Origin: a bacterium
GTDB taxonomy: Bacteria; Fidelibacterota; Fidelibacteria; Fidelibacterales; Fidelibacteraceae
Length of the DNA: 64,000 bases
Assembly: GCA_963676395.1 (NCBI GenBank)
Contig: OY781066.1
Coordinates: forward strand, 2,208,001 to 2,272,000
Direction: 5' to 3'
The notes beneath the pieces were generated by a model. It did not search any database, was not told the DNA's origin, and was given only the letters and a program-made list of their open reading frames with translations. The position numbers and the translations under genes are program-made. Below are positions 19,813 to 40,500 of this stretch, piece after piece (the first letter of the stretch is position 1; every line of letters starts with the position of its first letter).

Positions 19813-20039
19813 AGTTATCTCCTTGATTAGTAAAGTAATAAGAACGGCACTAAAATAAAAATATTACGAATATTGTGCAAGATAAAAATTATGAAATAGG
19901 TATATAGGTAGATATAAAAAGGTACTCAATTATATTTAATTTCAATTGTCCGCGGTGTTTTTTGAGTTACTTGCTAAATGTTAGCGGTAATAATTTAGGT
20001 AGATTTTCCGTTTCACTGAGGAAAAGCGGAGAGGAGGGG

Positions 20040-20282: not shown

Positions 20283-20660
20283 TTGTGTCGTTTCAATTAC
20301 AATGTGAAAAGTAATGATTTATTGAGGGGTTTCAAATACAAATCGGCGTAAAAGTAAGGAGTAAGGAGACTTAATTGTTAATTACAGTACATTAATTGAA
20401 TAAAAAATACTTTTGATATTCATATTTAGATTGTAAAATAGGCTATCGAATAAATTATTATGTATATACAGGCGAAAATCTGTAGCTGAAAGAATGTTTT
20501 TGGGATTATGTGTTGAATGCTGACAATCAGAAACTTACATCGCTCATTTGGTGGCAGAAAAGTAATTTCAGGGCTTGATATAGACTTGGAACCAGAAAAA
20601 TCAAATTCAATGGTGAGCGTTGATAGTGAATATTAAAACGATTAAAATACGTGGTTATAT

Positions 20661-21515: not shown

Positions 21516-21615
21516 CTAAGTAATTTGCTATCAATTATGGGTGTTTTTATAATTAGAACTAAATTTGGAATAAATATATTTTAGGAAAATATAATAAATA
21601 GGTATATAATTAATC

Positions 21616-22563: not shown

Positions 22564-22579
22564 AGAAGCGAGGAGAATT

Positions 22580-24169: not shown

Positions 24170-25029
24170 TGAAACGTTATAATCTAATATACCGCATTCT
24201 TTTCCTTTTATTGACGGTCTTGGTGATTCCTTTGTTACCAATCATTATTATCTTTTTAGGAACAAATTCTCCCGAATATGTGATCAAGGGAACCTTGAAT
24301 ATGAGTGTTTCGCCGGGAGTATCTCCTTGGAATCTGTATTTGGAAGCATTGAAAAACCTTCTTACATTCAATTTGGGGACATCCATTTCTTCCGGCCAAT
24401 CAGTTATAAATGAAATAGGTGCGGGATTGGGTCAATCTTTTAAGATTATTATACCGGCGCTGGTATTGAGCTACCTTCTGGGAACATTGATTGGTATTTT
24501 GAGAAAAGGTAAAAGCCCAATTACAGGAAAGCGGTATGATTTTATCTTTTACATTCCGATGATCGTTTTCTCCTATTTCTTTCTGTTCTTATCCGACAAA
24601 TTGGGAATTGATTTTACGTCCGGTATAAGATATGTGTATGCGGTTATTATCTTATCGATTTATCCGGTTTTTATCGTTTATAAATCATTTATTTCCCGAT
24701 ACCATACGATCATTGAAAGTGATTTTTACCAATTTCATTTGTCCACGGGTGTAGGTAAATCTAATATTTTTAAAAATTTTCTTGTAAAATATTTCGGAAT
24801 CGAATACCTTTCATTCTTAGAAAATCTTGTTATATATATGTTCGGGTTTATTTATTTTGTTGAATCCCCCTTTGCTATTAATGGTATGGGCTATAAATTT
24901 GTTTTGGGCATTCAACGATTTGATTACCCGCTGATCATTGGCTTCTGTATTGTGAGTATTATTTTTTTTTCTGTGATCAATATTATTATTGGATATATTC
25001 AATCAAAAATCGATCCTAGAAGGACATGA
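24169..25029 (+). CDS. ABC permease, divergent OppB-like
   Basis: Hydrophobic; NLGTS, VESPFAINGMG, DYPLIIG. Confidence 0.8.
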   Translation: MKRYNLIYRILFLLLTVLVIPLLPIIIIFLGTNSPEYVIKGTLNMSVSPGVSPWNLYLEALKNLLTFNLGTSISSGQSVINEIGAGLGQSFKIIIPALVLSYLLGTLIGILRKGKSPITGKRYDFIFYIPMIVFSYFFLFLSDKLGIDFTSGIRYVYAVIILSIYPVFIVYKSFISRYHTIIESDFYQFHLSTGVGKSNIFKNFLVKYFGIEYLSFLENLVIYMFGFIYFVESPFAINGMGYKFVLGIQRFDYPLIIGFCIVSIIFFSVINIIIGYIQSKIDPRRT

Positions 25030-25802
25030 AAATTAAAAAACAGACATGGCTTTTATCCTTTCTATTGATAATCATCATTATTATTACTTGCCATAATATT
25101 TTTCTTTCACCTTCTAAACAAACAACGTTATTAATATCTCCCAACTGGAATCATTGGTTTGGGACGGATATTAACGGAAATGATGTTTTTATAAGGACGT
25201 TGGGAGCATTTGGGTATGAACTGCTTAATTTGGTAAGTGTTCTTTTCCTTGTATGGATTTTGGGACTATTATTGGGAAGTTTGGTATCCCAGATCGGAGG
25301 TCAGGCTTTTAAAGCTTTTTTCTTGAATCTTGTTCATTACATGGCCACATTACCCGTATTACTGATTGCATTATTTTTGCTGATACTTTTTGGAGGTGGC
25401 TTTTTTAATGCTGTTATTATTCTTTCAATTACGATTATTCCGACACAAATACTTTTTGTGTACAATCAACTGGAAACAGCTCAAAATGAAAGCTTTGTTG
25501 TTGCTAAAAAGAGCTATGGATTATCTAATACCGCAATTTATAAATCTCATTTAATTCCTTTTATTTTAAAAAAATATAATAGTTATACTTTATCCCGCAT
25601 CCCAGAAATCATTATGATGAATCTCGCTTTAAATTTTTTAGGATTAGGGATTCAAGAACCTCATCCAAGTTTAGGACGGATGCTATTTGATGGTTTGTCT
25701 TTTATGTTTTCTGCGTGGTGGTTGTGGATATCTCCCGTTATATTAATATTTTTATTATTCCTGATTGTAATTAGTATTAATCATGGTAAAGCTTATGATT
25801 GA
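25026..25802 (+). CDS. ABC permease, OppC-like
   Basis: HWFGTDINGNDV, EAA-like FVVAKKSYGLS, LNFLGLG..PSLG. Confidence 0.85.
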   Translation: MKIKKQTWLLSFLLIIIIIITCHNIFLSPSKQTTLLISPNWNHWFGTDINGNDVFIRTLGAFGYELLNLVSVLFLVWILGLLLGSLVSQIGGQAFKAFFLNLVHYMATLPVLLIALFLLILFGGGFFNAVIILSITIIPTQILFVYNQLETAQNESFVVAKKSYGLSNTAIYKSHLIPFILKKYNSYTLSRIPEIIMMNLALNFLGLGIQEPHPSLGRMLFDGLSFMFSAWWLWISPVILIFLLFLIVISINHGKAYD

Positions 25803-26781
25803 CATTACATCTATTCAAAATAAATTGTTAAATGATATTAAATCCTCCTATGGAAAAAATAAATTAATACCATTTACAGGTGCAGGTTTTTCTAAAAATA
25901 TTATAGGTTATCCAAGCTGGAAAGAATTTATCGAAATAATATCTGATGATATCTCAGGAAACATAGAACATATTAAAGAGATGTTTGATAATAATTATCT
26001 TCAATCTATAGAATATTATATGATGAGTTTTCTTATAAATGAAAATCTTGCGGACGACCCAAAAAGTAAAGATCTTGGAAAAGAACAACTTTCAAAAAAA
26101 TTGAAAGAGATTTTTTGTAAAGAATTTGACCAGTCAACATGGGAAGCACAAATAGCTTTAATCAGTTTAAAGAATTTTGATTTAATATATACTACAAATT
26201 GGGATAATACCTTGGAAATTACTTGCAGGGAAATACTTGGTGAAGATAGATATAGGGTGTACTATAGAGCTTCACAATTAGAAAATATTAAAGAGGACTA
26301 TTGCAACATATTAGAACATAAAAAAGAAAATAGAAAAAAACTGATAATAAAATTACATGGTGATATTAAAGATTATGATTCAATAGTAGCATCAGAAGAT
26401 GCTTATTATAGTAGAATGAATTCATTTAATGCTTTCGATATTGTATTTCAAAATGATATACTTTTGAATGATTTTTTATTTATGGGGTTTAGTTTTGACG
26501 ATGCCAATATTAATTATTTACTTCAACAAATTCGATCTATGAAGAAAGAAATTAAACCTTCCAATAACAAAGTATATCTTATATCAATTAAAAAACCAGA
26601 TATCGCATATTATAAACTATATGAGAAATATAAAAACGTAGATGTATATTATTTGTTTAATAATATGCTAGAATATGAAATGTATGATAAATCTTGTGAT
26701 GAAGAAAAGAATAGAATAATAAAAAATAAAACAATAGAATTCTTCGATTATATTTCAGATGGAGAATTAAAAGAAAAGTAA
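25795..26781 (+). CDS. Stand-alone SIR2-like (SIR2_2) protein
   Basis: PFTGAGFS..YPSW, YTTNWD, IKLHGD, FMGFSFDD. Start may be 25783 or 25795. Confidence 0.85.
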   Translation: MIDITSIQNKLLNDIKSSYGKNKLIPFTGAGFSKNIIGYPSWKEFIEIISDDISGNIEHIKEMFDNNYLQSIEYYMMSFLINENLADDPKSKDLGKEQLSKKLKEIFCKEFDQSTWEAQIALISLKNFDLIYTTNWDNTLEITCREILGEDRYRVYYRASQLENIKEDYCNILEHKKENRKKLIIKLHGDIKDYDSIVASEDAYYSRMNSFNAFDIVFQNDILLNDFLFMGFSFDDANINYLLQQIRSMKKEIKPSNNKVYLISIKKPDIAYYKLYEKYKNVDVYYLFNNMLEYEMYDKSCDEEKNRIIKNKTIEFFDYISDGELKEK

Positions 26782-26805
26782 ACTAATGTATTAAGAGGTA
26801 TTCAG

Positions 26806-27861
26806 ATGGCTATAGGATTTTCAGGTAGTAATGGAGGTATTACAAATATATACAATCAATATCTTAATAAAATATGCACATCAAAACAATCGCTCGAAGT
26901 CTCATATTTTATTAACAATCGTTGTAACTTAAATTGTAAACACTGTTATGTCGGATATTATGATTCCTCAAAAAATCTTCAGATAGATGAATGGAGTAAA
27001 ACATTTGACAGCCTCATAAAAATGGGTGCTAAAACATTTGGAAATGTTGGGAAAGAGCCTTTACTGGATTGGGATAGTACAAAAATGTTGCTTCAATATT
27101 TTAAAGCCAAGAGAGATGAAGACAAAACTATACGTTTTGGGTTTGTCAGTAATGGATTGCTTCTAAATGAAGAAATTATTCAAGAATTGACCCAAATAGA
27201 GCCTGATTATATAGATATCAGTCTTGATGGCGACCAACATAGTCATGATTCTATCCGGGGAGAGGGTACTTATCAAAAACTTCTAACCAATCTTACTCTA
27301 TTGGCAGAAACGAACTTGGCAAAAAAGGTATTTATCAGTTTTACATTGAATAATATCAATAAACATTCATTGCCGGAAGTTATTAAAACCATTTATCAAA
27401 TCGGCTTGAAAAATTTGTTGATTTCACCTTATGTCACATTGAATAAAAAAGATCTGCTGTATCTATCAGATGTCGAAATTGCCGATATTATTTCCGATAT
27501 TCTGCATGAGAATACAATATCATTTAAAAATTATGAACATTTGAATATCTACGTAAAAAGTGATTATTCTTCTTCAAAGGGAGTCATGGAGAAATTTAAA
27601 GACAGAGGTATTATAAATAAAAATGATTTATTAGTAGATAATTATGGTGTTGTTTTTAATAAATATCAATTTGGTACAAATCATATTTATTTCAATTATT
27701 TACCTTATGACAATACCTTCACACAAGCCATTAGGATCAGTCATGACGGTTATGTAAGCGGTTGTCTTGAAATGTTCCATGAAGATTATCCTGAACGGGC
27801 TATTGGGAATATCAGGGAAATGGATATTTCAAAAATATTGGCAAATTATAATAAAAATTAA
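26806..27861 (+). CDS. Radical SAM enzyme of unknown function
   Basis: CNLNCKHC, GKEPLL, ISLDG..HDSIRG.G, C-terminal DGYVSGC..IGNI. Confidence 0.88.
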   Translation: MAIGFSGSNGGITNIYNQYLNKICTSKQSLEVSYFINNRCNLNCKHCYVGYYDSSKNLQIDEWSKTFDSLIKMGAKTFGNVGKEPLLDWDSTKMLLQYFKAKRDEDKTIRFGFVSNGLLLNEEIIQELTQIEPDYIDISLDGDQHSHDSIRGEGTYQKLLTNLTLLAETNLAKKVFISFTLNNINKHSLPEVIKTIYQIGLKNLLISPYVTLNKKDLLYLSDVEIADIISDILHENTISFKNYEHLNIYVKSDYSSSKGVMEKFKDRGIINKNDLLVDNYGVVFNKYQFGTNHIYFNYLPYDNTFTQAIRISHDGYVSGCLEMFHEDYPERAIGNIREMDISKILANYNKN

Positions 27862-27920
27862 TATTTGTCTTGCATTGTTATCTTATACAGATCATTAGTA
27901 AAACTCTTCAATAAATTTTA

Positions 27921-27945
27921 ATGTACTCAACTTTATGGAGTACAT
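27921..27945. terminator. Hairpin downstream of the radical SAM gene
   Basis: atgtactc...gagtacat inverted repeat; weak U-tail. Confidence 0.35.
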
Positions 27946-28041
27946 AAGATTAACATTTCTCAATGGAACAATTATATTTCTGCTCGTTTAAATTGACTAA
28001 ACAATGAGTTGTATATGAATCCCAAAGTATCAGCCTTCTCC

Positions 28042-28145
28042 TAACGATAAACGATAAACGATAAATGATGAACACCTGCCAGCCGAAGTCCGTTAACTAA
28101 CGGATGAAGGCATAAATAGTGACGCGTTACGCGTGACGAGTAACA
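28042..28145. repeat. Two short heptamer arrays plus a REP-like hairpin
   Basis: aacgata x3; cctgccagccgaagtccgtt...aacggatgaaggc; gtgacgc gttacgc gtgacga. Confidence 0.6.
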
Positions 28146-28256
28146 GGCTCCCAACCTTTCTACTATTTCCTTGCAAATCAGGCAATTAAGCCGCAAATTA
28201 GTTCAAGCAAATAAATAAGTTTAATCATTGGATCAAGGCATATTGTCTATGTGTAA

Positions 28257-29588
28257 TTAATCCATATTCAACGCTTCAACCTCTTCCACTGTCTTGATCT
28301 TGTGATGCTTCATGCGACGGTTCTTGAACTTACGGAAGATGTATTCGATGATCAGGGCAGCGGAGAAGGTAAGCAGACTGGCGATAAAGGCGCTTTTCTG
28401 CGTATTCCACTGGTAAAGCATCAATGCGACGAACACGGCGATTAGGATGATTAGATTGATGATGATCAGCCATTTTTTTCCACCCACTTCCTTTTGAAGT
28501 TTCAAATGCGAGATCAGAACGAAAATATAGATGACCGTATACACGGTACTGGTGATCGAGGCAATTGCTTCCAGATTGAAAAAGAGCGCGAAGATCAGGC
28601 CGAGTCCTGCGGTAATATACAATCCTTCAGTGGATTTGAACCAGACCTTGCGTTCAAAGATCTCCGGCAATTCACCGTCTTTGGCTAGTGAATAGGCGAT
28701 ATTCGCGCCGCCGAAAAGGGTCGCGTTAAGAGCCGATGATATGGAGAACAAAGCACCGATCGTGATCAGGATGAACCCGAAGTGCCCCAGAAAAGGCTTG
28801 GCCGCCATTGCCAGGGCATTTTCCTGGTCTTTCATGATCTCGGATATCGGGAGATTCCCGATCGTGACGACCGAAATGAGGATGTAGAAAACCATCACAA
28901 GAAAAATGCTGATATAGGTCGCACGGGGTACGTTCTTTTGAGGATCTTTCAAATTCTCCGAGACATTAGTGATCAGTCCGAATCCCATATAGGACAGGAA
29001 AAAAATGATCGAAGCGTTCAATAATCCATGTACGTTCGATGAATGAAAATCCGGCTTTGCCATCGTCATGTCAATGGTCAGGAAGCCGCCCAGAATAAAG
29101 ACCAGTAGAATGGTCAATTTAACCAGCACAATATAGAATTCCGCTTTCCCCACGGCTTTACTGCCGAAAAAGTTCAAGCCCGTAAAAATCAGGATCACGG
29201 CCACTTCGACCAATCCCAGGGATAAAGGTGTGGACTCGATATGAGCGAAGGGGAGGAAATAACCGGCAAATCCTTTGACGAAGAGAGAAATGGAGACCAC
29301 GTAGCTCAACCACATCAGAAAACTCAACGCACCGGTGACCAGTGAATCGCCCATGCCTTTCAGGATAAAGGCGACAGGTCCGGCGTTTGAAATGATCCGT
29401 TTGCCTAAGATGGCATAGGAATACGCGACAGCCAAAGCGTACAAACCGGATAAAATGAACGCAAAGGGGAGATCTTTTCCTGCAATGCCTGCACCAAGGC
29501 CGAAAATAGAGAAAATACTGGCACCGATCATGGTTCCGACAGCAATGGAGATGACCTCCGGCAGGCTTAATTTCTTGTTGTTTTCCAT
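28257..29588 (-). CDS. APC-family amino acid permease
   Basis: GTMIGASIF, many TM helices; AGGAG RBS before ATG 29588; visibly higher GC than neighbours. Confidence 0.88.
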   Translation of the reverse strand: MENNKKLSLPEVISIAVGTMIGASIFSIFGLGAGIAGKDLPFAFILSGLYALAVAYSYAILGKRIISNAGPVAFILKGMGDSLVTGALSFLMWLSYVVSISLFVKGFAGYFLPFAHIESTPLSLGLVEVAVILIFTGLNFFGSKAVGKAEFYIVLVKLTILLVFILGGFLTIDMTMAKPDFHSSNVHGLLNASIIFFLSYMGFGLITNVSENLKDPQKNVPRATYISIFLVMVFYILISVVTIGNLPISEIMKDQENALAMAAKPFLGHFGFILITIGALFSISSALNATLFGGANIAYSLAKDGELPEIFERKVWFKSTEGLYITAGLGLIFALFFNLEAIASITSTVYTVIYIFVLISHLKLQKEVGGKKWLIIINLIILIAVFVALMLYQWNTQKSAFIASLLTFSAALIIEYIFRKFKNRRMKHHKIKTVEEVEALNMD

Positions 29589-30214
29589 TGAATGGCTCCT
29601 GTTCTTTGGACAGTTAACGTGTGAAATCAAAATTGTTTCATTAATTTTACTTGATTATAATAAAACATGCAAGCTGTGATATAACATAAAATAGATCATA
29701 ATATAAATCCGCGATCGCGTGGCTTATTCCGTTACATTGTGCAAAAGTTCTCCAATCTATGATCGGCAAGCGACAAGCACAGGGTTGTTGTTTTTGAAAA
29801 TTTAAATGTAGCCGAGAGATTATTCAAGAATGATTTAATTACTAGAGACCACATAGCTAATTAAATGACACGATACCTATAGAATATAAAGAACTGTTTA
29901 ACCTTATACATACAACTGTCCGGAAAATGAGGGAATGTCAGGTCTAACATATTTATCTGTGTAAGTTATGGGTCTATTCAATATCATTATGTGAATTAAG
30001 CTCGGATTATGATGATTTTGTTACTGCAAATTAATCTATGGCTATGATTTACGTATAACAGGTCACGACTTTTGATGAATTTGATCTTCCGATATACTTT
30101 TTTTAAAAAGTTCTTTCAATAAAGGAATATCCTTTATAAAATATGATATAAAATAATAAAATGAATATCAGGCGATTAGCCGACTCTTGAATTTCACGCG
30201 CAGATGGGAAGTAG

Positions 30215-30670
30215 ATGCTACGTATCAGAAACCTATATCATTCGTTTGGAGACAGGAAAATAATCAACGGACTTGACCTTGATCTGGAACCTCAAAAGAT
30301 ATATTGTCTAATGGGAGCAAATGGATCTGGTAAAACGACATTATTCAATATTATTACCGGATTTCTTAAAGCAAAAAGTGGCGATATAACATATAAAGAT
30401 CAATCCATATTTAATAAATCTCCCGTTAAAATTAATCATTTAGGTATAAGTCGAACTTTTCAAGATCTCCGTATGATCCGGGAATTAACGGTAAGAGAAA
30501 ATGTTATGCTTGCCTTTAAGGGTAATAAAGGAGAGAATATATTTCAAGCTATGTTACCCCCTCCATTATTAAAACACCAGAATGATGAGTTTAATTCAAG
30601 AGCAGAAGAAATTATTGAACGTGTATTTCTTAGCGATGTTATTGATCAAAACCCTGATGTATTCCGATAA
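30215..30670 (+). pseudogene. Truncated branched-chain amino acid-type ABC ATPase (LivG-like)
   Basis: GANGSGKTT, GISRTFQDLR; ends before the signature and Walker B motifs; no partner genes. Confidence 0.75.
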
Positions 30671-31576
30671 TAAATACGGGGGAGAGACCTATAAGCTCGT
30701 ATTTGAGCCTCAGGATACGCTGTATCGCAGGCATACACATGGTATTTTTACTTATGACAAGAATGCCGAACTGCGCGAAGAGCAAGGTTATTTGAACGAA
30801 AAGACCATTGCGAAAACATCAATTCTTTGGTTTCGCAATTACTTTGATGAAAAGGGTGATACGCTAAAGGCGATCAAGAAGACCGATCCGGACTCCGATT
30901 TTGGCTCTCGTGTAGAATACCAGAAACATTATTACAAAGATGGCGAGGTTGTAGAGGTCGAAGAGATCTATACCGAGGCCCATAACAAAGAAGTGGGACT
31001 CGTCAAACATAGCGTTATTGCGAATCCCGAGAAAGACGGAACCATTGTCACTTATCAATACAATAACGAAAAGATCGAAAAAGATGCCATTCTTAGTCAT
31101 GAGATCCATTATAATCATTACATCGAACCCGTTAAAGAGGTCATGTATCCGACATCACGGGTCAAGAATTACCTAAATCTCCAAATATTGATCATCGACC
31201 ATCACCCGGACGGCGCTCAGAGCATCATTGCTCATTACAAAGAGAACGACGCCCCCCACTCCGGAAGTCAAACTCCACGAGATCAAAGATGCTCCCAATG
31301 GCGACCAGCTGGTCGAATCCACATCTATTTCGATGGCGAACTCTACTACCGCATCAACTTAAGCGGTTACATCGCCCAGTATGCCACCCCCGACTACCGC
31401 TTTAAAACCTACCTCACCGCCTTCAAACGCGACAGCAGCATCGACCACGTCGAAAGACAGACGACAAAAACAAACACGATTATACCCTCAAGGTCACGGA
31501 ATTTTACCAAGGCCAGCAGTACCGTGATCTGTACTACAGAGACGGTAAGGTAGAGAAGACGGAATATTATGAGTAG
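30647..31576 (+). pseudogene. 5'-truncated, frameshifted Tyr-rich beta-repeat (MORN-variant-like) protein fragment
   Basis: Higher-GC segment joined to the LivG fragment. An alternative frame gives DDKNKHDYTLKVTEFYQGQQYRDLYYRDGKVEKTEYYE-stop at 31576. Confidence 0.55.
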
Positions 31577-31907
31577 GGGAGGGCATGTTTACCCCTAAAA
31601 ACTGTGATTCCATTTATTAAGAAATATTTGAATGAGCTTAACTTTATGAAGCCCTTAGAATGAATATTTCAATTATATATAATAAACTTTAAGCAATGAG
31701 TTTCTTGATTAAAATATAAGTAAATTGACGAAATAGTTAAAATATAATGATAGCTATTAATACTTGTTTTGAAATTAAAGATTATTTATATTTTATTATG
31801 AATTTAGCATAAATTATTGAGAATTAGTTTATTCGACTTATTGACTGAATTGTTATCTATGGTTCTTGCACAGCAAGAATTATAAGATTTATCATGAAGG
31901 AAGTTAG

Positions 31908-33182
31908 ATGGATGCATTAATTGATATTACAACTATTCATCGAATTGGTAAGATTATTTATTCTAAAGAAAATGAACGTGTTAGAGCAATTGATATTGTT
32001 GCATTATTGCATTTTGTTGAGCTAATATTATTTTGTGATAACATATATTTTACACAAATTGAAGGTGAAAAAACAGTTCCTCTTACTAGTAAAATAATTG
32101 AATCGTTAATGAAATATGGATGTATTCCAAAAGATAATTTTAATTCTTGTATGTTAAAACCAATAAAATCGAAATATGACGATCATTATGATTTTCATGT
32201 AGTCGCGGCAAATAAATGTGCAAATATATTGTATACATTAAAGAATGACAATTTGTTTAAGCAACTACCTAAGTATTTTGATTGTGCTTCTCAACCAGAT
32301 GGAGTTAGAATAGACAATATATATAAATTATTAGAATCAAAAGACATTCACGAACCCATTTCTAATGAGTTTTTGTTAGAATTAATTAAGGATGATTTTG
32401 TATTGGGTTCCACAAAATCAATTCTTTTTAGTAGTCGAGAATTGCAATTACAGCTAAAACAATTATATAAAAAACCAAATTTTCAATATGATTATTTATT
32501 TAGAACAATGTTTAGGATTAAAGCTAATGAGGCTATAGCAAATAAGTTTAATTGCATTTATTCACCGGCACCGCAAAGAGCTATATTTGATCAAATAATC
32601 TACAGATCTATATTATCAGATATGAATAAATCAATTTTATCGATCAGAAATGAATTGGGCTTGCGTAAGTATTTTGATGGAGTTTTTAAAAAATATGTTA
32701 TAAGCGAGGAATATCCATTTCCTGCTCTTGTGATTGGTATTTTATTAGAGAATAAATTAAATGAACCTATAGAAATGTTGCAATGGGCTTGTAAATATCG
32801 TGAGGAAAGCAATGAATTAAACAATATACGAATGTATATAAATGAACTAGAGCGTTTAAATATGACTGGAAATTATTCTGATCAAAAAAACGTTAAAGAT
32901 AATATTAAAAATGTGATATATGAAGTAAGACAAAATTTAGATAATAATTTTGTTAAATCAATATTTAGATCATCTCTAAAAAATTTCTTAAGTTTGATTA
33001 ATGTTAACAATGATGGCAATATGACAGATGAAGAAATTGATAATTATTTAAGGTTATTTCGCTCAAAAAAATATGAAAAGATATTACCAACAAATTTTTT
33101 ATCAATTATTACTAATAACTTATTATCTGAGTCAGAATTAGGAGCATGGCTTTCAAGCTCCTTAAAAAGAGAAATATATTAG
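31908..33182 (+). CDS. Hypothetical 424-aa protein, first gene of the caspase operon
   Basis: Long ORF in very AT-rich DNA; AGGAAG RBS; no family recognised. Confidence 0.75.
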   Translation: MDALIDITTIHRIGKIIYSKENERVRAIDIVALLHFVELILFCDNIYFTQIEGEKTVPLTSKIIESLMKYGCIPKDNFNSCMLKPIKSKYDDHYDFHVVAANKCANILYTLKNDNLFKQLPKYFDCASQPDGVRIDNIYKLLESKDIHEPISNEFLLELIKDDFVLGSTKSILFSSRELQLQLKQLYKKPNFQYDYLFRTMFRIKANEAIANKFNCIYSPAPQRAIFDQIIYRSILSDMNKSILSIRNELGLRKYFDGVFKKYVISEEYPFPALVIGILLENKLNEPIEMLQWACKYREESNELNNIRMYINELERLNMTGNYSDQKNVKDNIKNVIYEVRQNLDNNFVKSIFRSSLKNFLSLINVNNDGNMTDEEIDNYLRLFRSKKYEKILPTNFLSIITNNLLSESELGAWLSSSLKREIY

Positions 33183-33229
33183 TAAAATATTATTAATATT
33201 ATTTGGAAAAATTAGATAAAGAGGTCAAA

Positions 33230-33595
33230 ATGAGAAAATTAAAATTTATAATTGATTTGGGTGATTTAGGTAACGATATCGATCCATATGAATTTCAACA
33301 GTTTTTAAAACAATCTAATTATTTGACAACTTGTAAATATTGTCATATTGACAATAAAGATGAAAACGATTTGAGAAGTAAAGATCTTTCGTTGGCAATA
33401 GAAATAACCCTATATGTGATGCCTGTAGTAGAAGGTTCTATTGATTTGATTCAGGAACTTGATGTTAATACATTTATAGATCTACTATTAAAATTAAAAG
33501 GGATTAAAGAGGGACTTGATTTTGTTAAAAATTGTATAGTTGAAGTTAAAGACAAAAATAATGGTAAAATTAGATATGTTGATAAAAAAAAATAA
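33230..33595 (+). CDS. Small protein overlapping the caspase gene, possibly EACC1-like
   Basis: GAGG RBS then ATG 33230; central hydrophobic stretch; C-terminal IVEVKDKNNGKIRYV hairpin-like pattern. Confidence 0.55.
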   Translation: MRKLKFIIDLGDLGNDIDPYEFQQFLKQSNYLTTCKYCHIDNKDENDLRSKDLSLAIEITLYVMPVVEGSIDLIQELDVNTFIDLLLKLKGIKEGLDFVKNCIVEVKDKNNGKIRYVDKKK

Positions 33596-35378
33596 GGTAA
33601 AAGATTATGCATTTGTGTATGGAGTGAATGGTCATGAATTAAAATTTTCTGAAATAGATGCATATGATTTTGGAAAATTTTTGATGACTAAAAAATACCT
33701 TAATTATCAGGTGAAGTTTGGTGATAATTGCTATAAAAATGATTATGGTTTTCTATCACAATTCGAAGAAAGGATAAAAGATCTAGAACCTAATTCAAGG
33801 CTTTTATTTTATTTTTCTGGTCATGGTGTTTTTGAAGGAGATCCAAAACAATTTAGTTTTGAAATTGGGAGAGATGAATTTTGTTCATTTAATAGTTTGA
33901 TAAAATCAATTAAAAAATCTGAGGGTGCTTTACAAGAAATATTATTTATTTTTGATTGTTGTCATGCACATGTTATTAAACATGAAATTGAACATTTAAA
34001 TATTATAGATAGTAATAAAGCAAGAATAACTGGTGTGGATTATCAAAAGAGATATCATATACTACTTCCTACAAATTACATTAAAACAGAAACATATGAA
34101 GCATTAATAGATTCCGATAGTTCTTTTACTAAAAATATATCAAAAACAATTGATAAAATAGCTGTTGATTTTTTAAATAAAACTGGGAAAATTACAATCA
34201 AGGATATTAAAGATGCTTACCCTAATCAAAATGATCTTACTAATAGCCCTACCATTCTTGATAGCTTGAATGATGATTTTGTAATCGGTAAAATCGGAGA
34301 ACGGAAATTTGATAAAACATATATTGGTGATAGGGCTTCTCAAATAAACGAATATCTTAATGCATTCAGTGTTGCAGATAATGTTTCTAAAAAATGGACA
34401 GTTAAAGTTCCTTATGGTCCTCATAGTATAATTAAACTTCAAGGACGTTTGTCTAAAATTATAAAAGAACAAGATGAAGAATTTGAAGAATTTGATAAAA
34501 AAGCGGAAAGGAAATATTTTGATGCTATTCAAAATCCTGAATTAGCGCTAGTCAGTAACGCAATATATACATTTCCGTTTTTTATGACTCCATCAAGATT
34601 ACCGTTTTGGGGGGTAATTCCTTATGGGTATCATTTGGCACTAGGAATTTTATATAAAAAAGGCAAAAATAACATTAAATCATTTTCAGAAGAATATTTT
34701 AATAGAGAAATTGTGTTGAGATACAAATATGAACCTAGTAGTAGAGAACAAAAAGAATACAGTGCAATTAAAGATTATCATTGGATCAATGAACTTATTA
34801 ATGGAATTATAGTAAGTGATGTTAAAGGAAAGATTTATTCTAATTCTGGTTATATGTATAGTGAATTAATTCCTCTATTAATTAATTCTTCCCAGGTTGA
34901 TTTTACGCTTGAAAAATTAAATGAATATTTATATGTCATACCAGTTTCTTCAGAGCGAGTAAATAATTATATTTACCCTAAAGAATGTTTGTTAAAAAAA
35001 CATGCAATTGAAAATATTATTGTAGATTATATGGAGGGTAGAGAAAGAAATATTACCCCAACTATTAATGATATCACAATTTTTGATCTTGCACATAAAA
35101 AAAACTTAATTGAAGTACTTAAGCGCAGAGGACTAGAAGAAAGTTATGGATTAATTAGCATGTATCATAATCTCAATATACCGGTTGGTATTGGATTTAG
35201 TTTGAAATCATACAAACTGTTTCAAGATAATAGAAATTTGTGGTCAATGTTGGAAAATGAAGTTAGGGAGTTTTTTATAGAGGCACCTAATAATTGCAAA
35301 TATAATAAGCAAAGAAAAAGAAGAATATTATCGGAATTAAATGATATTGGTATTAAAATAAATTTAAATAACCATTAG
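33576..35378 (+). CDS. Caspase-like (peptidase C14) protease with a C-terminal putative solute-binding domain
   Basis: YAFVYGVN..L....DA, FYFSGHG (33816), IFDCCHA (33954). C-terminal half resembles the adjacent SBP. Confidence 0.82.
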   Translation: MLIKKNKVKDYAFVYGVNGHELKFSEIDAYDFGKFLMTKKYLNYQVKFGDNCYKNDYGFLSQFEERIKDLEPNSRLLFYFSGHGVFEGDPKQFSFEIGRDEFCSFNSLIKSIKKSEGALQEILFIFDCCHAHVIKHEIEHLNIIDSNKARITGVDYQKRYHILLPTNYIKTETYEALIDSDSSFTKNISKTIDKIAVDFLNKTGKITIKDIKDAYPNQNDLTNSPTILDSLNDDFVIGKIGERKFDKTYIGDRASQINEYLNAFSVADNVSKKWTVKVPYGPHSIIKLQGRLSKIIKEQDEEFEEFDKKAERKYFDAIQNPELALVSNAIYTFPFFMTPSRLPFWGVIPYGYHLALGILYKKGKNNIKSFSEEYFNREIVLRYKYEPSSREQKEYSAIKDYHWINELINGIIVSDVKGKIYSNSGYMYSELIPLLINSSQVDFTLEKLNEYLYVIPVSSERVNNYIYPKECLLKKHAIENIIVDYMEGRERNITPTINDITIFDLAHKKNLIEVLKRRGLEESYGLISMYHNLNIPVGIGFSLKSYKLFQDNRNLWSMLENEVREFFIEAPNNCKYNKQRKRRILSELNDIGIKINLNNH

Positions 35379-35395
35379 CTGTAGGAGAATTAAAT

Positions 35396-36328
35396 ATGGT
35401 TGAGTTAAAAGAAAATCTTAAAAATAATCGTATGATGAGAAATGGTCGTTTTGCTATAGTATTCTCAATAATAGCCTTTTTTATAAGTTTATTATCAATA
35501 TTAGCTTTTACTCCTAATAATAAAATATCAGATAAAAATAATTATATCGGTGTATTTCAAGAAATTAAGAAACACAAAGTATTAAAAATTGGATACGGAG
35601 GTTTCCCTCCATATACAATAGTAAATCCAAATGTTAAAAATTCTGAGGATGAAGTAACCGGGTATTCTATAGATTTAATTAAGGAGATTGCTTCACTAGC
35701 ACAACCGGAGTTGGAAATCGAATGGGTAAGATTTAGTTGGGAAACTATTCAAACTGAGTTGAATTCCGGGAAATTTGATATAATAGCAGATCCAGTATAC
35801 CAAACTATTCCTAGAGCATTTGAATTCGATTTTACAATGCCTTATGCGTATTTTGGTATTGCTGTAGGTGTGGTAAACAAAGATGATGATAGATTTAATA
35901 CATTTTCAGACTTAGATAGAGATGATATAATAATTTCACTTGCAAAAGGTTGGACAACATCTGAGTATGCTGAAAAATATCTTGATAAACCAAAATTTCA
36001 TTTTATTTCTGCAACGGGTGATGCTTTTAATCAGCTTGATGATGTGATTCTAGGGAGAGCTGATGTTGCATTAAATGATGTACCTACAGTTGTACAATAT
36101 GTAAATGCCCATTCTGATGTAGTCAAAAGCGTTTTTATAGAGAATCCACCTTCTAGCGTACCCGGCGGTTTTGTAGTAAGAAAAGGAGAAGTTGATTTAT
36201 TAAACTTTTTGAACACTTCACTATATATACTTATGGCTAATGGTACACTTGAGAGACTAGATGAAAAATGGGAAACATACCACCATATACCAATCAATAC
36301 TAAAGTACCTGGCAGTGGTATAAAATGA
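35396..36328 (+). CDS. Polar amino acid ABC substrate-binding protein (family 3)
   Basis: N-terminal TM anchor; LKIGY..FPPY, GYSIDL, W......LNSGKFDI, GRADV, GTLERL.EKW. Confidence 0.9.
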   Translation: MVELKENLKNNRMMRNGRFAIVFSIIAFFISLLSILAFTPNNKISDKNNYIGVFQEIKKHKVLKIGYGGFPPYTIVNPNVKNSEDEVTGYSIDLIKEIASLAQPELEIEWVRFSWETIQTELNSGKFDIIADPVYQTIPRAFEFDFTMPYAYFGIAVGVVNKDDDRFNTFSDLDRDDIIISLAKGWTTSEYAEKYLDKPKFHFISATGDAFNQLDDVILGRADVALNDVPTVVQYVNAHSDVVKSVFIENPPSSVPGGFVVRKGEVDLLNFLNTSLYILMANGTLERLDEKWETYHHIPINTKVPGSGIK

Positions 36329-36340
36329 TCGGTTATATAT

Positions 36341-37015
36341 ATGCTAAATTATAATTGGGACTTTTCTTTTCTTCTCAGCTATAGAGATGCTTTCTTAAAT
36401 GGTATAGTGGTAACACTTTATGTCTCGCTTATGTCGTTTATAATTGGTACTATTGTTGGCATATTATTTGGTATGTTGATTAAATATATCAAACGGAATT
36501 ATATATTATTATTAATTAATGATGCAATTCGTGCTATACCAATGTTAGTTATGATATTTTTTGTATATTATTTTCCTTTCAAAGCATTATTGGGAATTAA
36601 TCCTCCTAATGCCTTGTATTCCTCAATTATAGCAATTAGTATAAGTCAGGCAGCTTATACCGCTGATATTGTTAGATCGGCAATAAATTCAGTATCATCC
36701 AAAACCATTCAAGGAGCCAAAGCATTAGGTCTGAAAGAAGTTGTTGTTCTTAGATATATAATTCTTCCCGATATAATTAGGCAAACGTTACCTGCGCAAA
36801 TAGCCTTTCTAATTGGCATTTTTAGATTGTCAAGTTTGGCATCAGTTATTGGTGCAAATGAAATCGTATTTGTAGCTCGTACAGCAATATCACAAAATTA
36901 TCGTTCTTTGGAGGCATGGATTGTTGTTGCAATAATTTATATTATATTAATATTGCCTTTAACATTCCTAAGTAGACGCTTAGAAAATTCAAAATGGTTA
37001 AAACGAAGATGGTAA
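36341..37015 (+). CDS. Polar amino acid ABC permease (HisM/GlnP-like)
   Basis: GIVVTL, RAIPMLV, AAYTADIVRSAI, GAKALGL, SSLASVIG. Confidence 0.92.
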   Translation: MLNYNWDFSFLLSYRDAFLNGIVVTLYVSLMSFIIGTIVGILFGMLIKYIKRNYILLLINDAIRAIPMLVMIFFVYYFPFKALLGINPPNALYSSIIAISISQAAYTADIVRSAINSVSSKTIQGAKALGLKEVVVLRYIILPDIIRQTLPAQIAFLIGIFRLSSLASVIGANEIVFVARTAISQNYRSLEAWIVVAIIYIILILPLTFLSRRLENSKWLKRRW

Positions 37016-37773
37016 ATAAAGAATTAATTTTAAAATGTAAGGATATTCAACATTCTTTTGGCTCGAATAAAGTTTTAAACTCATTAAACTTGGAATTGGT
37101 TAAAGGAGAAATAAAAGCAATTATTGGTGCTAGCGGTTGTGGAAAAACAACTCTATTAAAAAATATTAACTTGCTAATACCACCACAAAAGGGTGAATTG
37201 CAGTTATCAAAACAAGTTTATTTTAATAATGGTGAAATAATTTATGAACCATATGAATTATGTAGAAGTATTGGATTGGTTTTTCAGGATTTTAATTTAT
37301 TCCCGAATTTAACATGTCTAAATAACATTACTTTAGCTTTGATAAAGAATTTAGGATTTACAAAAGAAAATGCAACAGAAACATCCCTAAGAATTGCTGA
37401 AAAATTACATATACAAGATGTGCTTAAAAAGTATCCTGGGGATTTAAGTGGAGGTCAGGCTCAAAGGTTAAGCATTGCAAGAGCAATAGTACTGAAACCT
37501 AAAATATTATTGTTAGATGAGATTACTTCTGCTTTAGATCCTAATACTACACAAAATGTTATTGATGCAATAAAAGATGTTAAACTATTACTTCCAGAAT
37601 TATCAATAATTATTGTAACTCATCATATACAATTTGCTGAAAGATTTGCTGATAATATTGCATTTATGTTCGATGGTAGAATTATTGAAGAACTACCTGC
37701 GAGAGAATTTAGTACGAATTGTAAGAATTCTAAAACGCAAGAATTCGTTAAAGTGGTCGCAGGAATTCATTAA
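36994..37773 (+). CDS. Polar amino acid ABC ATPase (GlnQ-like)
   Basis: GASGCGKTT, VFQDFNLFP, LSGGQAQR, LLDEITSALDP, VTH. Start may be 37009. Confidence 0.92.
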   Translation: MVKTKMVNKELILKCKDIQHSFGSNKVLNSLNLELVKGEIKAIIGASGCGKTTLLKNINLLIPPQKGELQLSKQVYFNNGEIIYEPYELCRSIGLVFQDFNLFPNLTCLNNITLALIKNLGFTKENATETSLRIAEKLHIQDVLKKYPGDLSGGQAQRLSIARAIVLKPKILLLDEITSALDPNTTQNVIDAIKDVKLLLPELSIIIVTHHIQFAERFADNIAFMFDGRIIEELPAREFSTNCKNSKTQEFVKVVAGIH

Positions 37774-37777
37774 AAAT

Positions 37778-38800
37778 ATGTTTATTAAAATTAATAATTG
37801 TGAATTGCCTATAATTGAGAGTTTTATTGCTGATAATTCCAATAATATTTATTGTCATAATGTTTCAAGTGATGTTAGGCAAAGTAAATATTTTGATTTT
37901 ATGTGTTTTTATCTGTTTTTTATAGAATATGAGAAGAACAATATTGAAAGATATAAGGCAATACTGAAATTACTTGATACTTGCACTATTGGAAAATTTA
38001 TAGCGGGATTTCTTCAGAACATTCCAAACAATAAATTAAAAAACTATTTATCAGTTTGGCCCCAGACCAATATAGCCATTGCAGAATCTCAATTGATTAA
38101 AAATGTTTTCAAAGGAATTTTAGATGAATTTGGGAATGTCAGATATAGTCTGACAGATATTGGTACAGGAGATGGAGTGCTTTTAAAGGAAATTATTGAT
38201 ATGTTTTATGAAAAAGGCTATCCATATCTTAAAGTTACCGCAATAGATCAAAATAAAGATTTATTATCTCTTGCTATGAATGAAATCCTTAATTATAAGT
38301 CTAGTTTAAATGATTTGAATATAGTGCATGGAAACATGTTTGAAATAAAGTACGAAAAATATTTTAATAATGATGATATTAAAATAATCAATGCTTCATC
38401 GGTTCTCCATGAATTACCGAGAAGGGATAAGATTACTATGCTCGAAAAACTTAAAAAATATTCTGATATTATTGTTATATGTGAGCTTGAAAGTAATCAT
38501 GATATTGAATGTGTTGCTTGTATTCCTTTATTGTTGTCAACATATAATTTTTATAGTGCTTTAATTCATGATACTTTGGAATCTGACATAGATAGAGGTA
38601 TGTCAAAAAATTATATACTAAATTATCTCATTAAAGAACTTTTCGATATAAATACTAAGCCTTATCAAGATAGAGTTAACTATCATATGACAAAAAATCA
38701 ATGGTTAGATATATTTAGAATATGTGAATTTGATGTTAAAATACATGAAAAATCAATTTCGAATGATAAACCAAAAATTAATGTTTTCGTACTGAGGTGA
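37778..38800 (+). CDS. Class I SAM-dependent methyltransferase, GRAS-domain-like
   Basis: DIGTGDG, LKVTAID, INASSVLHEL, ICELESNHD, FYSALIHDTL, DRVNYH...QW...F in GRAS order. ATG 37778 lies 4 bp after the ATPase stop. Confidence 0.72.
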   Translation: MFIKINNCELPIIESFIADNSNNIYCHNVSSDVRQSKYFDFMCFYLFFIEYEKNNIERYKAILKLLDTCTIGKFIAGFLQNIPNNKLKNYLSVWPQTNIAIAESQLIKNVFKGILDEFGNVRYSLTDIGTGDGVLLKEIIDMFYEKGYPYLKVTAIDQNKDLLSLAMNEILNYKSSLNDLNIVHGNMFEIKYEKYFNNDDIKIINASSVLHELPRRDKITMLEKLKKYSDIIVICELESNHDIECVACIPLLLSTYNFYSALIHDTLESDIDRGMSKNYILNYLIKELFDINTKPYQDRVNYHMTKNQWLDIFRICEFDVKIHEKSISNDKPKINVFVLR

Positions 38801-38802
38801 AA

Positions 38803-39555
38803 ATGGTAAGAAAGATTATTTGTTTAATTATTATGCAAATATTCGTTATAAATATTTTGTTTGCTCAAGTTAATGAGTCTTCTACAGAAATAAGTAATAA
38901 TAGCTTTCAATTTGGTGTTTCAAATTATACGGTTTCAAAATATATTCCACGATCTGGCACTCAAGTCGGGCTTGGATCGGCAAATCAAACTTTAGGTTAT
39001 TTATCATATAAAAACCTAACCATATATTTTTGGATGAATTATGGATTCCCGGATGAAACGATAACTGAATTTGATTATGGAATTGAGTACAAACATAATC
39101 TTTATTCAGATACTCATTTAGGTGAAATCAGTATAGTGGGTGGTGCACACAAGTATATTTTTCCTGTAGCCCAATTGAACAACTTTATATTAGAAGGAAA
39201 AATACTTTATAATGGTATTTTAAAAACAGATATTCTCTATACGCATTGTTTTAGAAGTAATAACGTTGATTCAGGAAGTAGAATTTATATTGAATTGCGA
39301 AAACCAGTAATATTATTTGATAAATCATTTCAAATTCAATTAATTCCATTAATGTCAAGTGCATATCATTGGGGTTTTTATGGTTGGGAAAAGTGGGGGC
39401 AATTAACTGCTGGAATCAAGTCAAAGTTTGTTTTCGATAATATCTCTATAATTGCATACGCAAATTATCAATATAGTTCAGATGATATTAGTATAGGGCA
39501 TGTAACTGAAAAGTTATTCCCATATTTTGGAATTGGAATAGAATATAATAAATAA
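38803..39555 (+). CDS. Outer-membrane beta-barrel, TorF/Gcw_chp-like putative porin
   Basis: Signal peptide; SKYIPRSG and TEFDYGIEY patterns; C-terminal YFGIGIEY beta-signal-like strand. Confidence 0.6.
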   Translation: MVRKIICLIIMQIFVINILFAQVNESSTEISNNSFQFGVSNYTVSKYIPRSGTQVGLGSANQTLGYLSYKNLTIYFWMNYGFPDETITEFDYGIEYKHNLYSDTHLGEISIVGGAHKYIFPVAQLNNFILEGKILYNGILKTDILYTHCFRSNNVDSGSRIYIELRKPVILFDKSFQIQLIPLMSSAYHWGFYGWEKWGQLTAGIKSKFVFDNISIIAYANYQYSSDDISIGHVTEKLFPYFGIGIEYNK

Positions 39556-39583
39556 CTTGGGAACAAAACGATAAGGATAAAAA

Positions 39584-40363
39584 ATGGAAACAAAATATAA
39601 AATACATATTGGATATATATTTGCTATTCTCTTAGCAGTAATAGTTTATTTATCTGTTAAAGATTTTTCAAGTAATCCTGAATTAGTTGATTATATTTCA
39701 TTTGCGTCAACTGTCGCATCTTTAATTCTTGCTCTATTAGCAATTATTTATTCTTTTGTTTCGAATAATGCACTTTCGAAAAATATCGGAATTATTAATG
39801 AAGCAACAACAAATTTAAAAGAGAATTCTGATAGTCTAGATAGAGTATCAAAAGTTATTATTCATGAAATTCCTAATGCGATAAAAGAAATGGATCAAAA
39901 ACTAGATAGTACGCAAAACCTTGTCAATAATTTAGGATTAAATGATGAAAATGATAAGATTTCTCCCCATAAAAATTCAACATCAAAACTTACTATGGTG
40001 CAAAAGTTTATAGATGTGTCATCATTAACAGGATTATTTTTGATTTATGCGGTGTTTTTAGCGAATTATAAAAGTTTACCATTAAATATTGAAGAAATAG
40101 CTGTTGAGATTGGTCAGAGTAACGACGAATATGTATGGGGGTATTTTGTTGCATCTTCTTCCGCGGGGTTATTTGATTTTAATGCTAAGGATAAAGTATG
40201 TAACATTAAAACTATCCATTCTGAAATTAAAAAAGATGACCTAATTGAAAAAATTTCACTTAGAGGAAAAGAAATAGAAAGAAAAATTAAAGCGGATAAT
40301 CCCGATTCATCATATAGTTGGAAAAATAAATTTGAAGCAATTGAAAAGTATTTTGAAGATTGA
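39584..40363 (+). CDS. Membrane protein: 2 N-terminal TM helices, coiled coil, C-terminal domain
   Basis: Hydropathy pattern by eye; AAGGA RBS. Confidence 0.7.
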   Translation: METKYKIHIGYIFAILLAVIVYLSVKDFSSNPELVDYISFASTVASLILALLAIIYSFVSNNALSKNIGIINEATTNLKENSDSLDRVSKVIIHEIPNAIKEMDQKLDSTQNLVNNLGLNDENDKISPHKNSTSKLTMVQKFIDVSSLTGLFLIYAVFLANYKSLPLNIEEIAVEIGQSNDEYVWGYFVASSSAGLFDFNAKDKVCNIKTIHSEIKKDDLIEKISLRGKEIERKIKADNPDSSYSWKNKFEAIEKYFED

Positions 40364-40388
40364 TCTTAATTTCTTTGCTGATTAAATT

Positions 40389-40420
40389 AAAAAGGCTCCA
40401 AACTCTGGAGCCTCTTCGTT
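40389..40420. terminator. Rho-independent terminator between convergent genes
   Basis: aaaa-aggctcca-aactc-tggagcct-cttc. Confidence 0.7.
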
Positions 40421-40500
40421 TTAAATATGATTTTTTATTTTACTTCATTCTGTAAGCATTATCCTCTACTTCACTCCTTCGGAGCTTCGAAGTGCAAGCC

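Follow-up and report, generated by a model that had tools for sequence, protein, structure and literature searches.

What does a protein with the motifs of a plant GRAS domain do in a bacterium, and why is its gene found beside those of an ATP-binding cassette (ABC) importer and a hydrolase? The question is raised by a gene at 37778..38800 on the forward strand of a 64,000-nucleotide stretch of contig OY781066.1 (assembly GCA_963676395.1, positions 2,208,001 to 2,272,000), from a bacterium of the Fidelibacteraceae. The whole of this stretch is here called the window, and coordinates refer to it unless another locus is named. An earlier note, made from the DNA letters alone, had described the gene product as a bacterial GRAS-like protein with an intact S-adenosylmethionine (SAM)-binding loop, in a context that pointed to an amino-acid-like substrate. 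The analysis reported here indicates, from a predicted structure, that the protein is a true GRAS-fold relative despite ambiguous sequence profiles. The gene itself is a further member of a known bacterial GRAS kind, and it is the surrounding cassette of genes that is the new part. For the wider proposal, that the gene encodes a bacterial class I SAM-dependent methyltransferase of the GRAS fold, acting on a small molecule, and belongs to a mobile cassette of five to six genes, we consider the case for and against to be evenly balanced.

Fold and cofactor site of the methyltransferase

The assignment of the gene draws on its translation, Pfam, an AlphaFold2 model, Foldseek, VIA-align and motif conservation.

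37778..38800, + strand: predicted GRAS-fold class I SAM-dependent methyltransferase, 340 amino acids

The ATG start at 37778 lies 4 nucleotides (nt) past the stop codon of an ABC ATPase gene, and the methyltransferase stop overlaps the next start by 4 nt. A longer frame could open at a TTG at 37634, at the cost of a 140-nt overlap with the ATPase gene; the N-terminus that starts at 37778 aligns with those of relatives and is modelled with a predicted local distance difference test score (pLDDT) of 83-84 across its first 20 residues. To collect relatives, HMMER was run exhaustively on 1.84 billion cluster representatives, which gave 115 at E <= 1e-3 and 38 at E <= 1e-10, the best of them with 34% identity. 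Of these, 86 make up the family alignment, the remaining 29 rows having been left out as fragments or for their odd length. A word-indexed search of 5.8 billion proteins found nothing besides the query itself.

The AlphaFold2 model built on the 86 relatives reached a pLDDT of 93.6 and a predicted template modelling score (pTM) of 0.92, while a single-sequence model (pLDDT 36.5) was discarded as unusable. An N-terminal helical bundle (residues ~10-118) precedes a Rossmann core that begins with strand 1 (123-128), and a helical cap is formed by residues 249-293. The comparison of such a model with plant GRAS structures by Foldseek had been proposed as a check in the earlier note, and it came out clearly: all 11 rows listed up to rank 12 of the matches in the Protein Data Bank (PDB) are plant GRAS proteins (SCL3, RGA, SHR, SCR, SCL7), with E-values of 2e-12 to 4e-10 and query template modelling (TM) scores of 0.65-0.72, and the best non-GRAS rows (MppJ, SgvM and O-methyltransferases) have TM scores of at most 0.47. 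VIA-align, run on Foldseek's best 1000 chains, gave the same picture. Eight GRAS entries scored Z 22.8-24.9 with 297-308 of the 340 residues aligned (root mean square deviation 3.5-3.9), ahead of EgtD as the best ordinary methyltransferase (Z 20.0, 218 aligned), histamine N-methyltransferase (19.4, 206 residues), MM_2633 (18.3), SgvM (18.2), CysG(N-16) (18.1) and CmoA (17.9). The GRAS structures lead the ordinary enzymes by 3-5 Z units and 80-90 aligned residues because of the N-terminal helical bundle and the cap, both of which are missing from the ordinary enzymes. The modelled protein thus has the parts of a GRAS fold, a helical bundle and a Rossmann-type core with a cap, with most of the chain alignable, and the claim that this is a bacterial GRAS-fold protein is borne out by both kinds of structure match.

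The likeness to plant GRAS proteins, represented by SCL3 (6kpb), SCL7 (5hyz), the SHR-SCR pair (5b3g/5b3h) and RGA (9lum, 9o4j, 9o4k), is one of whole-chain architecture at only 9-16% identity, and the bacterial protein differs from them in retaining the D-x-G-x-G-x-G SAM loop. Plant GRAS proteins are transcriptional co-regulators and are not known to be enzymes. The closest characterised enzymes by structure are EgtD (4pio and others), the histidine N-alpha-methyltransferase of ergothioneine synthesis, and histamine N-methyltransferase, both of them small-molecule N-methyltransferases whose acceptor is an amino acid or an amine. Neither has the N-terminal bundle of GRAS proteins, and they are 9-10% identical to the window protein and have no gene context in common with it; the family Methyltransf_33 matches 4 of the 86 relatives, weakly.

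All eight motif strings quoted in the earlier note are present in the methyltransferase translation, at the following residues.

Residues 94-107: WPQTNIAIAESQLI
Residues 125-133: LTDIGTGDG
Residues 151-157: LKVTAID
Residues 204-213: INASSVLHEL
Residues 234-242: ICELESNHD
Residues 258-267: FYSALIHDTL
Residues 286-291: KELFDI
Residues 298-309: DRVNYHMTKNQW, followed by IF at 312-313

The consensus of the family, D-x-G-x-G-x-G ... LHH/LHE ... E-x-x-NHD ... FY ... R-x-(D/N)YH-x5-W, runs in the order in which the motifs had been read. The pocket residues probably correspond to the LHxL, EQEANHN, FY and RVERHE...W positions that are conserved in plants. Conservation was counted over the alignment of 86 relatives, and the window protein has every residue listed.

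D127: 85/86
G129: 85/86
G131: 86/86
G133: 84/86
D157, acidic position that closes strand 2 (modelled as 151-157): 86/86 (D in 68, E in 18)
H211: 86/86
Position 212: H in 63 and E in 23 of 86, with E in the window protein
K218: 84/86
H241: 66/86
D242: D in 75 and E in 10 of 86
Y259: 83/86
E287: 83/86
R299: 85/86
Y302: 71/86
H303: 84/86
W309: 85/86

By its sequence the protein has the marks of a class I methyltransferase, namely the glycine-rich loop of motif I (D127-I-G129-T-G131-D-G133) and the acidic residue D157; in these enzymes an acidic residue where strand 2 ends contacts the ribose of the cofactor. The SAM-binding loop is therefore intact, as had been stated, and is kept across the family. 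Taken with the strongly conserved polar and aromatic positions that follow strands 4 and 5 or lie in the cap, it would be expected of an active small-molecule methyltransferase. H241, D242 and H303 might conceivably make up a metal site of the kind known from the keto-acid C-methyltransferases MppJ and SgvM. Zhang, Iyer and Aravind are said to have proposed in 2012 (reportedly in Bioinformatics 28:2407) that bacterial GRAS proteins are small-molecule methylases.

Profile searches are less favourable, and their results weigh against the GRAS assignment. The Pfam GRAS model (PF03514), which the earlier note had suggested searching with HMMER, does match, collinearly (residues 147-326 aligned to positions 138-332 of the 374-position profile), but at 19.8 bits (E 4.1e-4) it stays under the gathering score of 27, so that its sequence by itself does not place the protein in the Pfam GRAS family. 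The best profile matches are generic methyltransferase families: Methyltransf_31 scores 27.2 bits against a cut-off of 27, Methyltransf_12 and Methyltransf_25 fall under their cut-offs, and the NCBIfam matches are all far below threshold. A phmmer search of PDB sequences gave plant O-methyltransferases at E 0.05. The profile of the 86 relatives matched MM_2633 (5.6e-13), CysG(N-16)-type chains and CmoA in the PDB, all confined to the Rossmann core; the best 60 matches listed include no GRAS chain, and the look-alikes of the protein in the ESM Atlas are generic class I methyltransferase clusters. On the other side, 25 of the 86 relatives, each scanned singly, match the GRAS model at E <= 1e-3 (best 5.4e-13), and 66 of the 86 match Methyltransf_25. 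Among the 22 closest relatives scanned in this way, 7 have a GRAS match at E <= 1e-3, and one alone (P0025, 29.9 bits) passes the cut-off. We attribute the sub-threshold score of the window protein to its being too diverged for a plant-trained model. Best hits to ordinary methyltransferase families had been named in advance as telling against a GRAS protein, if they came with no GRAS match; the best Pfam hit is indeed of this ordinary kind, while the structure match is clearly to GRAS.

The cassette in the window and at other loci

The methyltransferase gene belongs to a row of nine co-oriented open reading frames (ORFs) between 31908 and 40363, spaced by -56 to +28 nt. Those that recur elsewhere with the methyltransferase are given here.

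33540..35378, + strand: effector gene, 612 amino acids from a TTG at 33540 (605 amino acids in the gene call of the protein collection, which starts 7 codons later)
Effector residues 32-163: N-terminal caspase-like Peptidase_C14 domain (Pfam 22.5 bits, cut-off 21.4; PADLOC caspase model E 3.2e-7)
34425-35375, + strand: effector residues ~296-612, conserved C-terminal domain of no known family, shared with patatin-fused proteins
35396..36328, + strand: SBP_bac_3 solute-binding protein of the polar amino acid type, anchored in the membrane by its N-terminus (Pfam 1.8e-24)
36341..37015, + strand: ABC importer permease BPD_transp_1, 224 amino acids, the sole permease gene of the cassette (Pfam 2.2e-16)
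36994..37773, + strand: ABC importer ATPase, 259 amino acids, overlapping the permease gene by 22 nt (Pfam ABC_tran 5e-31)
38797..39555, + strand: protein of 252 amino acids, beta-rich and aromatic-rich with a signal-peptide-like N-terminus, possibly an outer-membrane barrel, with homologues at two other loci

In the effector we find SGHG (His95) and DCCH (Cys140/141), which, by comparison with metacaspase motifs, we take to be a His-Cys dyad. The nearest solved chains to the solute-binding protein are AncCDT-1 (6.8e-31) and then other amino-acid-binding proteins. SBP_bac_3, BPD_transp_1 and ABC_tran occur together, as in PAAT-type importers, in the window and at each of the three other full cassettes described below. 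The cassette is like the known His/Gln/Arg importers of this type in having all three in one operon, and unlike them in its single permease gene, its membrane-anchored binding protein and its linked methyltransferase and hydrolase. For the barrel-like protein the sole hint of a family comes from a homologue, at the locus L025, which matches a YaiO barrel at a sub-threshold E of 0.0022; a PDB profile search with the window protein gave no match.

Other copies were sought with a seven-sequence alignment of close relatives, searched against metagenome contigs. This gave four loci, at which 22 of the 24 ORFs were scanned (two 66-residue minus-strand ORFs were omitted). Two of the loci, L025 and L026, carry in order a patatin protein (643 and 666 amino acids, respectively), SBP_bac_3, a 224-residue permease, the ATPase, the methyltransferase and a 238-residue protein. 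A third, L024, is partial (1.6 kb) and has the end of an ATPase gene directly upstream of the methyltransferase. L027 was considered as a relative of the cassette and turned out to be an unrelated ordinary methyltransferase.

A further cassette was found independently, by way of the effector and not of the methyltransferase. A profile of the three C-terminal effector domains matched 7 of the longer proteins, 6 with a patatin N-terminus and the window's without one. Three of the 7 lie on contigs equal in length to contigs that carry relatives of the methyltransferase, at 9317 bp (L025), 7618 bp (P0121) and 30,753 bp (P0007), the last of which may be no more than a coincidence. When 401 genomes sampled from the phylum of the locus L017 were searched, the profile had a single match, in genome G525.

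L045:7833-12931 (G525, on a 3.35-Mb contig): 635-residue protein of patatin plus shared domain, SBP_bac_3, permease, ATPase and 278-residue methyltransferase

This cassette has a GC content of 0.27-0.33 and is flanked by housekeeping genes (NfeD/Band 7, LolA-like) at 0.37-0.44. Its methyltransferase retains the invariant residues. The gene order is identical in the window, L025, L026 and G525, which are all four of the loci with enough flank, and the core genes are spaced by -55 to +23 nt in the first three and by overlaps and short gaps in G525. Since G525 is without the barrel-like gene, the core of the cassette comprises five genes, with the sixth in 3 of the 4 full cassettes.

Identities to the window proteins are as follows.

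Binding protein: L025 63%, L026 62%, G525 57%
Permease: L025 70%, L026 68%, G525 58%
ATPase: L025 56%, L026 56%, G525 51%
Methyltransferase: L025 30%, L026 28%
Barrel-like downstream protein: L025 41% (E 3e-45), L026 36% (E 4e-41)
First protein, C-terminal ~270 residues only: L025 30% (E 4e-29), L026 35% (E 2e-24)

Divergence between the window and the two metagenome cassettes is thus uneven, at 56-70% identity for the transporter, 28-30% for the methyltransferase, 36-41% for the barrel-like protein and 30-35% for the effector domain. The N-terminal domains of the effectors are unrelated, being caspase-like Peptidase_C14 in the window and patatin in L025, L026 and G525. The hydrolase of the cassette, predicted to be cytoplasmic, carries one or the other catalytic domain on the C-terminal domain that all of them have in common. 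The only PDB profile match of that shared domain, to a glycosyltransferase at E 0.025, was judged to be noise. No usable match for it was found in the ESM Atlas, a word-indexed search with the C-terminal part of the effector alone returned only itself, and a predicted complex of this domain with the methyltransferase scored 0.00.

In a quick maximum-likelihood tree of 97 rows (86 relatives, 3 cassette loci and 8 genome loci; midpoint root, long branches flagged), all 7 cassette rows fall in one clade of 13 with 98% support in the Shimodaira-Hasegawa-like approximate likelihood ratio test (SH-aLRT), these 7 being the rows of the clade whose genomic context is known. All 8 rows from cassette-free genome loci sit in the other half of the tree. 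The window protein is like the bacterial GRAS proteins in its GRAS-related Rossmann methyltransferase fold and intact SAM-binding loop, and unlike them in belonging to this distinct clade, in scoring under the Pfam GRAS cut-off, and in that the 7 clade rows of known context are all in a cassette while 11 distant relatives are not.

These 11 came from a scan for distant relatives, made with a 12-sequence alignment of typical members on one genome per species. It gave 13 loci, of which L023 was excluded (69 residues matched) and L022 is weak; Pfam was run on 66 of the 79 ORFs, omitting the 13 farthest from the match. The sources of the 11 clear loci include Chamaesiphon, Thiomargarita, Parabeggiatoa, one Pseudomonadota metagenome-assembled genome (MAG) and four Bacteroidota MAGs. 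We note at two of them neighbours of other kinds. In Chamaesiphon polymorphus (L012:1392-2105) a 2OG-Fe dioxygenase (PF10014, 1.9e-62) lies directly downstream of the distant GRAS-like methyltransferase, and in a Parabeggiatoa MAG (L020:1410-2785) a GFO_IDH_MocA oxidoreductase and a cupin lie upstream of it.

Several of these results limit how far the cassette can be generalised. No SBP_bac_3 importer, patatin or caspase neighbour was seen at the 11 distant loci, several of which are short, and they have no common neighbourhood; a profile search found the shared effector domain in none of the 5 genomes with distant family members. The cassette context is therefore uninformative on the family as a whole. 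In G525, moreover, the barrel-like gene is missing and the methyltransferase is short by ~70 N-terminal residues. With four full cassettes and one partial one, the word conserved rests on few and possibly related loci.

The insertion that carries the cassette

The cassette lies in DNA that is particular to this strain. Orthologues of rpe (18134-18790 in the window) and of a glycoside hydrolase family 9 (GH9) gene (40501-43056) are only 1.0-2.5 kb apart in all 5 same-genus genomes compared, with synteny extending beyond them, from which it follows that about 21.7 kb of the window is an insertion.

18791..40500: strain-specific insertion of ~21.7 kb that holds the cassette, delimited by GC content and comparison with same-genus genomes

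The low-GC blocks of the insertion (20-28 and 32-40 kb) have a GC content of 0.25-0.34, compared to ~0.37-0.44 outside, and the nine-ORF stretch with the cassette has 0.25-0.30 compared to ~0.40 around it. The methyltransferase is single-copy in its genome and was not found in 40 relatives; 400 sampled genomes of the phylum gave no full-length match, and 8 of them matched the Rossmann core only. Signs of mobility are seen at L025, whose flanks hold an integrase fragment and an IS200-type transposase. There is no tRNA gene within the 64-kb window to mark an integration site. Alignment searches of viral contigs found no relative of the methyltransferase or of the effector domain, and a tblastn search of a plasmid collection gave no match for the methyltransferase, the shared effector domain or the barrel-like protein.

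Also within the insertion is the gene of an FRG-domain protein, which PADLOC matches to PDC-S15, a candidate defence family (8.1e-53). PADLOC-DB 2.0 matches the cassette itself only with generic caspase, phospholipase-effector and ABC ATPase models, and has no match for the methyltransferase, the binding protein, the permease, the barrel-like protein or the shared effector domain.

The remaining features of the region are listed below.

31908-33595, + strand: ORFs of 424 and 130 amino acids without a Pfam family
39584-40363, + strand: membrane protein of 259 amino acids, the last co-oriented ORF
40393..40413, + strand: terminator-like hairpin past the last co-oriented gene, the only site on this strand between 31.9 and 40.4 kb
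20661-27861, + strand: second low-GC cluster, with an FRG-domain protein, an Opp-type ABC ATPase, SBP_bac_5, two permeases, SIR2_2 and a radical SAM/SPASM enzyme
30215-31553: truncated ABC ATPase ORF (151 amino acids, profile positions 2-101 of 137) overlapping an ORF of 323 amino acids without a family, apparent remnants between the two clusters
40501-43056, - strand: 851-residue fusion of CelD_N, glycoside hydrolase family 9 and polysaccharide deacetylase, 68-77% identical across the genus

The flanking ORFs of 424, 130 and 259 residues have at most a sub-threshold DUF4199 match and no counterpart in L025, L026 or G525, and appear to be island-specific orphans. Terminator-like sites in the region number 3 against 3.9 expected, so they are not above chance, and a promoter scan gave 64 sites against 66 expected. 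The SIR2_2 protein of the second cluster is ThsA-like (2e-22) and matches LmuA (2.7e-18), and it was not found in the 400 sampled phylum genomes. This cluster parallels the GRAS cassette in bringing together an importer, a defence-type effector and a modifying enzyme. The rpe-GH9 interval itself is a hotspot for strain-specific insertion, and the flanking DNA of the same-genus relatives has a GC content of 0.48-0.54, compared to ~0.40 in the window.

Possible links between import, methylation and the exchangeable hydrolase

What, then, could an importer, a methyltransferase and an exchangeable hydrolase do together? In the clade of the cassette the enzyme travels with its own binding-protein-dependent importer in every case of known context, and this constant company makes the ligand of the binding protein the obvious candidate for a substrate. 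The family of the importer and the nearest solved binding proteins point to a polar amino-acid-like solute, and histidine, histamine and keto acids are the substrates of the characterised enzymes that come nearest in structure. We consider it rather probable that the importer, aided by the small outer-membrane-like protein where this is encoded, takes up a polar amino-acid-like compound, and that the enzyme methylates this compound or a direct derivative of it. The suggestion in the earlier note of an amino-acid-like substrate is partly supported: linkage to the importer was found at all four flanked loci, one further locus being partial, while an amino acid as the substrate is plausible from the family of the importer and the nearest solved binding proteins.

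The exchangeable hydrolase, and the position of this low-GC mobile unit among defence-type genes, mean that ordinary amino-acid metabolism is not the sole reading of the cassette, and perhaps not the best one. We would speculate that the shared C-terminal domain reads the methylated product, or the substrate, and so switches the hydrolase, which would make the cassette a module for response or conflict that is gated by import, and not a metabolic pathway; this is conceivable, if some way from likely. In such a module the C-terminal domain of the effector would control the caspase-like protease or the patatin lipase. The exchange of two unrelated degradative domains on one module, the divergence of the methyltransferase, barrel-like protein and effector domain, which is faster than that of the transporter, and the defence-type neighbours would all fit a conflict system. 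The fullest form of the idea, an undescribed kind of mobile conflict or alarm system in which a dedicated, envelope-spanning importer takes in an extracellular amino-acid-like signal, the GRAS-fold enzyme converts it and a new ~300-residue domain reads the product and unleashes the caspase-like protease or patatin, we regard as unlikely.

Like known defence systems with interchangeable effectors, of which the cyclic-oligonucleotide-based antiphage signalling system (CBASS) with the patatin CapV is an example, the cassette places one non-catalytic module on alternative degradative domains, and it is sporadic, low in GC and found next to other defence-type genes. It differs from them in having no cyclase, sensor ATPase or other hallmark, and in having an importer. 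A number of points count against a response module fed by an imported amino acid. Importers are not known as a usual component of defence systems, and no cassette-specific protein matches a known one in PADLOC-DB 2.0. The amino-acid part of the argument depends on the family membership of the binding protein only, and no activity, ligand or phenotype is on record for any member.

The main rival to the response module is an island for uptake and modification, serving salvage or detoxification, in which a conjugate or analogue is imported, the hydrolase frees a moiety and the GRAS-fold enzyme methylates it, with no signalling or killing. The patatin would be an esterase-type hydrolase in some cassettes, and the cysteine protease of the window an amidase-type one. 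An importer of the polar-amino-acid type, tightly packed genes that are all co-oriented, and the fact that the nearest structures after GRAS (EgtD, SgvM and MppJ) act on amino acids or keto acids are all as this account would have them. The swap of a protease for a lipase on one domain, however, fits a single chemical step poorly; the hydrolases have no export signal, and their conserved part is a large domain of ~300 residues of no known family. The cassette is moreover rare, low in GC and found beside defence-type genes, and no additional pathway enzymes are conserved in it. We think this account rather doubtful.

A quite improbable alternative is that the methyltransferase acts on a macromolecule, be it the shared domain of the effector, the transporter or a nucleic acid, and thereby sets or marks the state of the system. 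The intact SAM site would be in keeping with this, as would the fast evolution of both methyltransferase and effector domain, and plant GRAS proteins act through protein contacts, to judge from the titles of solved complexes. Against it, the nearest non-GRAS structures are those of small-molecule enzymes, and the conserved importer would be left unexplained. We give similarly little credence to a non-catalytic protein that binds SAM or another ligand as a sensor or scaffold, in the manner of plant GRAS. Its whole-chain fold is indeed nearest to non-enzymatic plant regulators, but these are not known to retain the glycine loop, whereas 86 diverged relatives of the window protein show hardly any variation in motif I, at the acidic position that follows strand 2 or in the pocket, as would be expected of an enzyme. 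That an ordinary class I methyltransferase resembles GRAS by chance, as its best Pfam match, its GRAS score below the cut-off and its generic neighbours in the PDB profile search and ESM Atlas might suggest, is scarcely credible given the structural lead of GRAS, which includes the N-terminal bundle and cap, and the GRAS matches of its relatives.

We return to the proposal of an import-coupled module and to what it would mean. GRAS domains in bacteria, and their nature as Rossmann methyltransferases, were described in 2012, according to a later paper that cites the work (PMC4279901). Full-text literature searches, which leave most subscription journals uncovered, found no bacterial GRAS member with a substrate or role, only passing mentions in plant gene-family papers, and no description of the cassette. 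According to a 2025 review, plant GRAS genes probably came from soil bacteria, with one bacterial subgroup grouping with the plants, and it is to bacterial GRAS proteins that the plant regulators DELLA, SCR and SHR are traced (PMC12448838).

The constant presence of a protease or lipase, interchangeable on one domain of no known family, within an insertion of defence type points to a new response module coupled to import. Were the conflict or alarm reading true, it would place a bacterial GRAS protein within a circuit that leads from a small molecule to a response, and would give a first functional context to the bacterial ancestors of plant hormone-pathway regulators. An ABC importer would then, for the first time, be seen to gate a system of defence type, and the cluster of Opp-type importer, SIR2 and radical SAM genes at 20.6-27.9 kb could be a second example of this logic. 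Should the cassette prove instead to do no more than take up a compound and methylate it, the family would even so have gained its first substrate.

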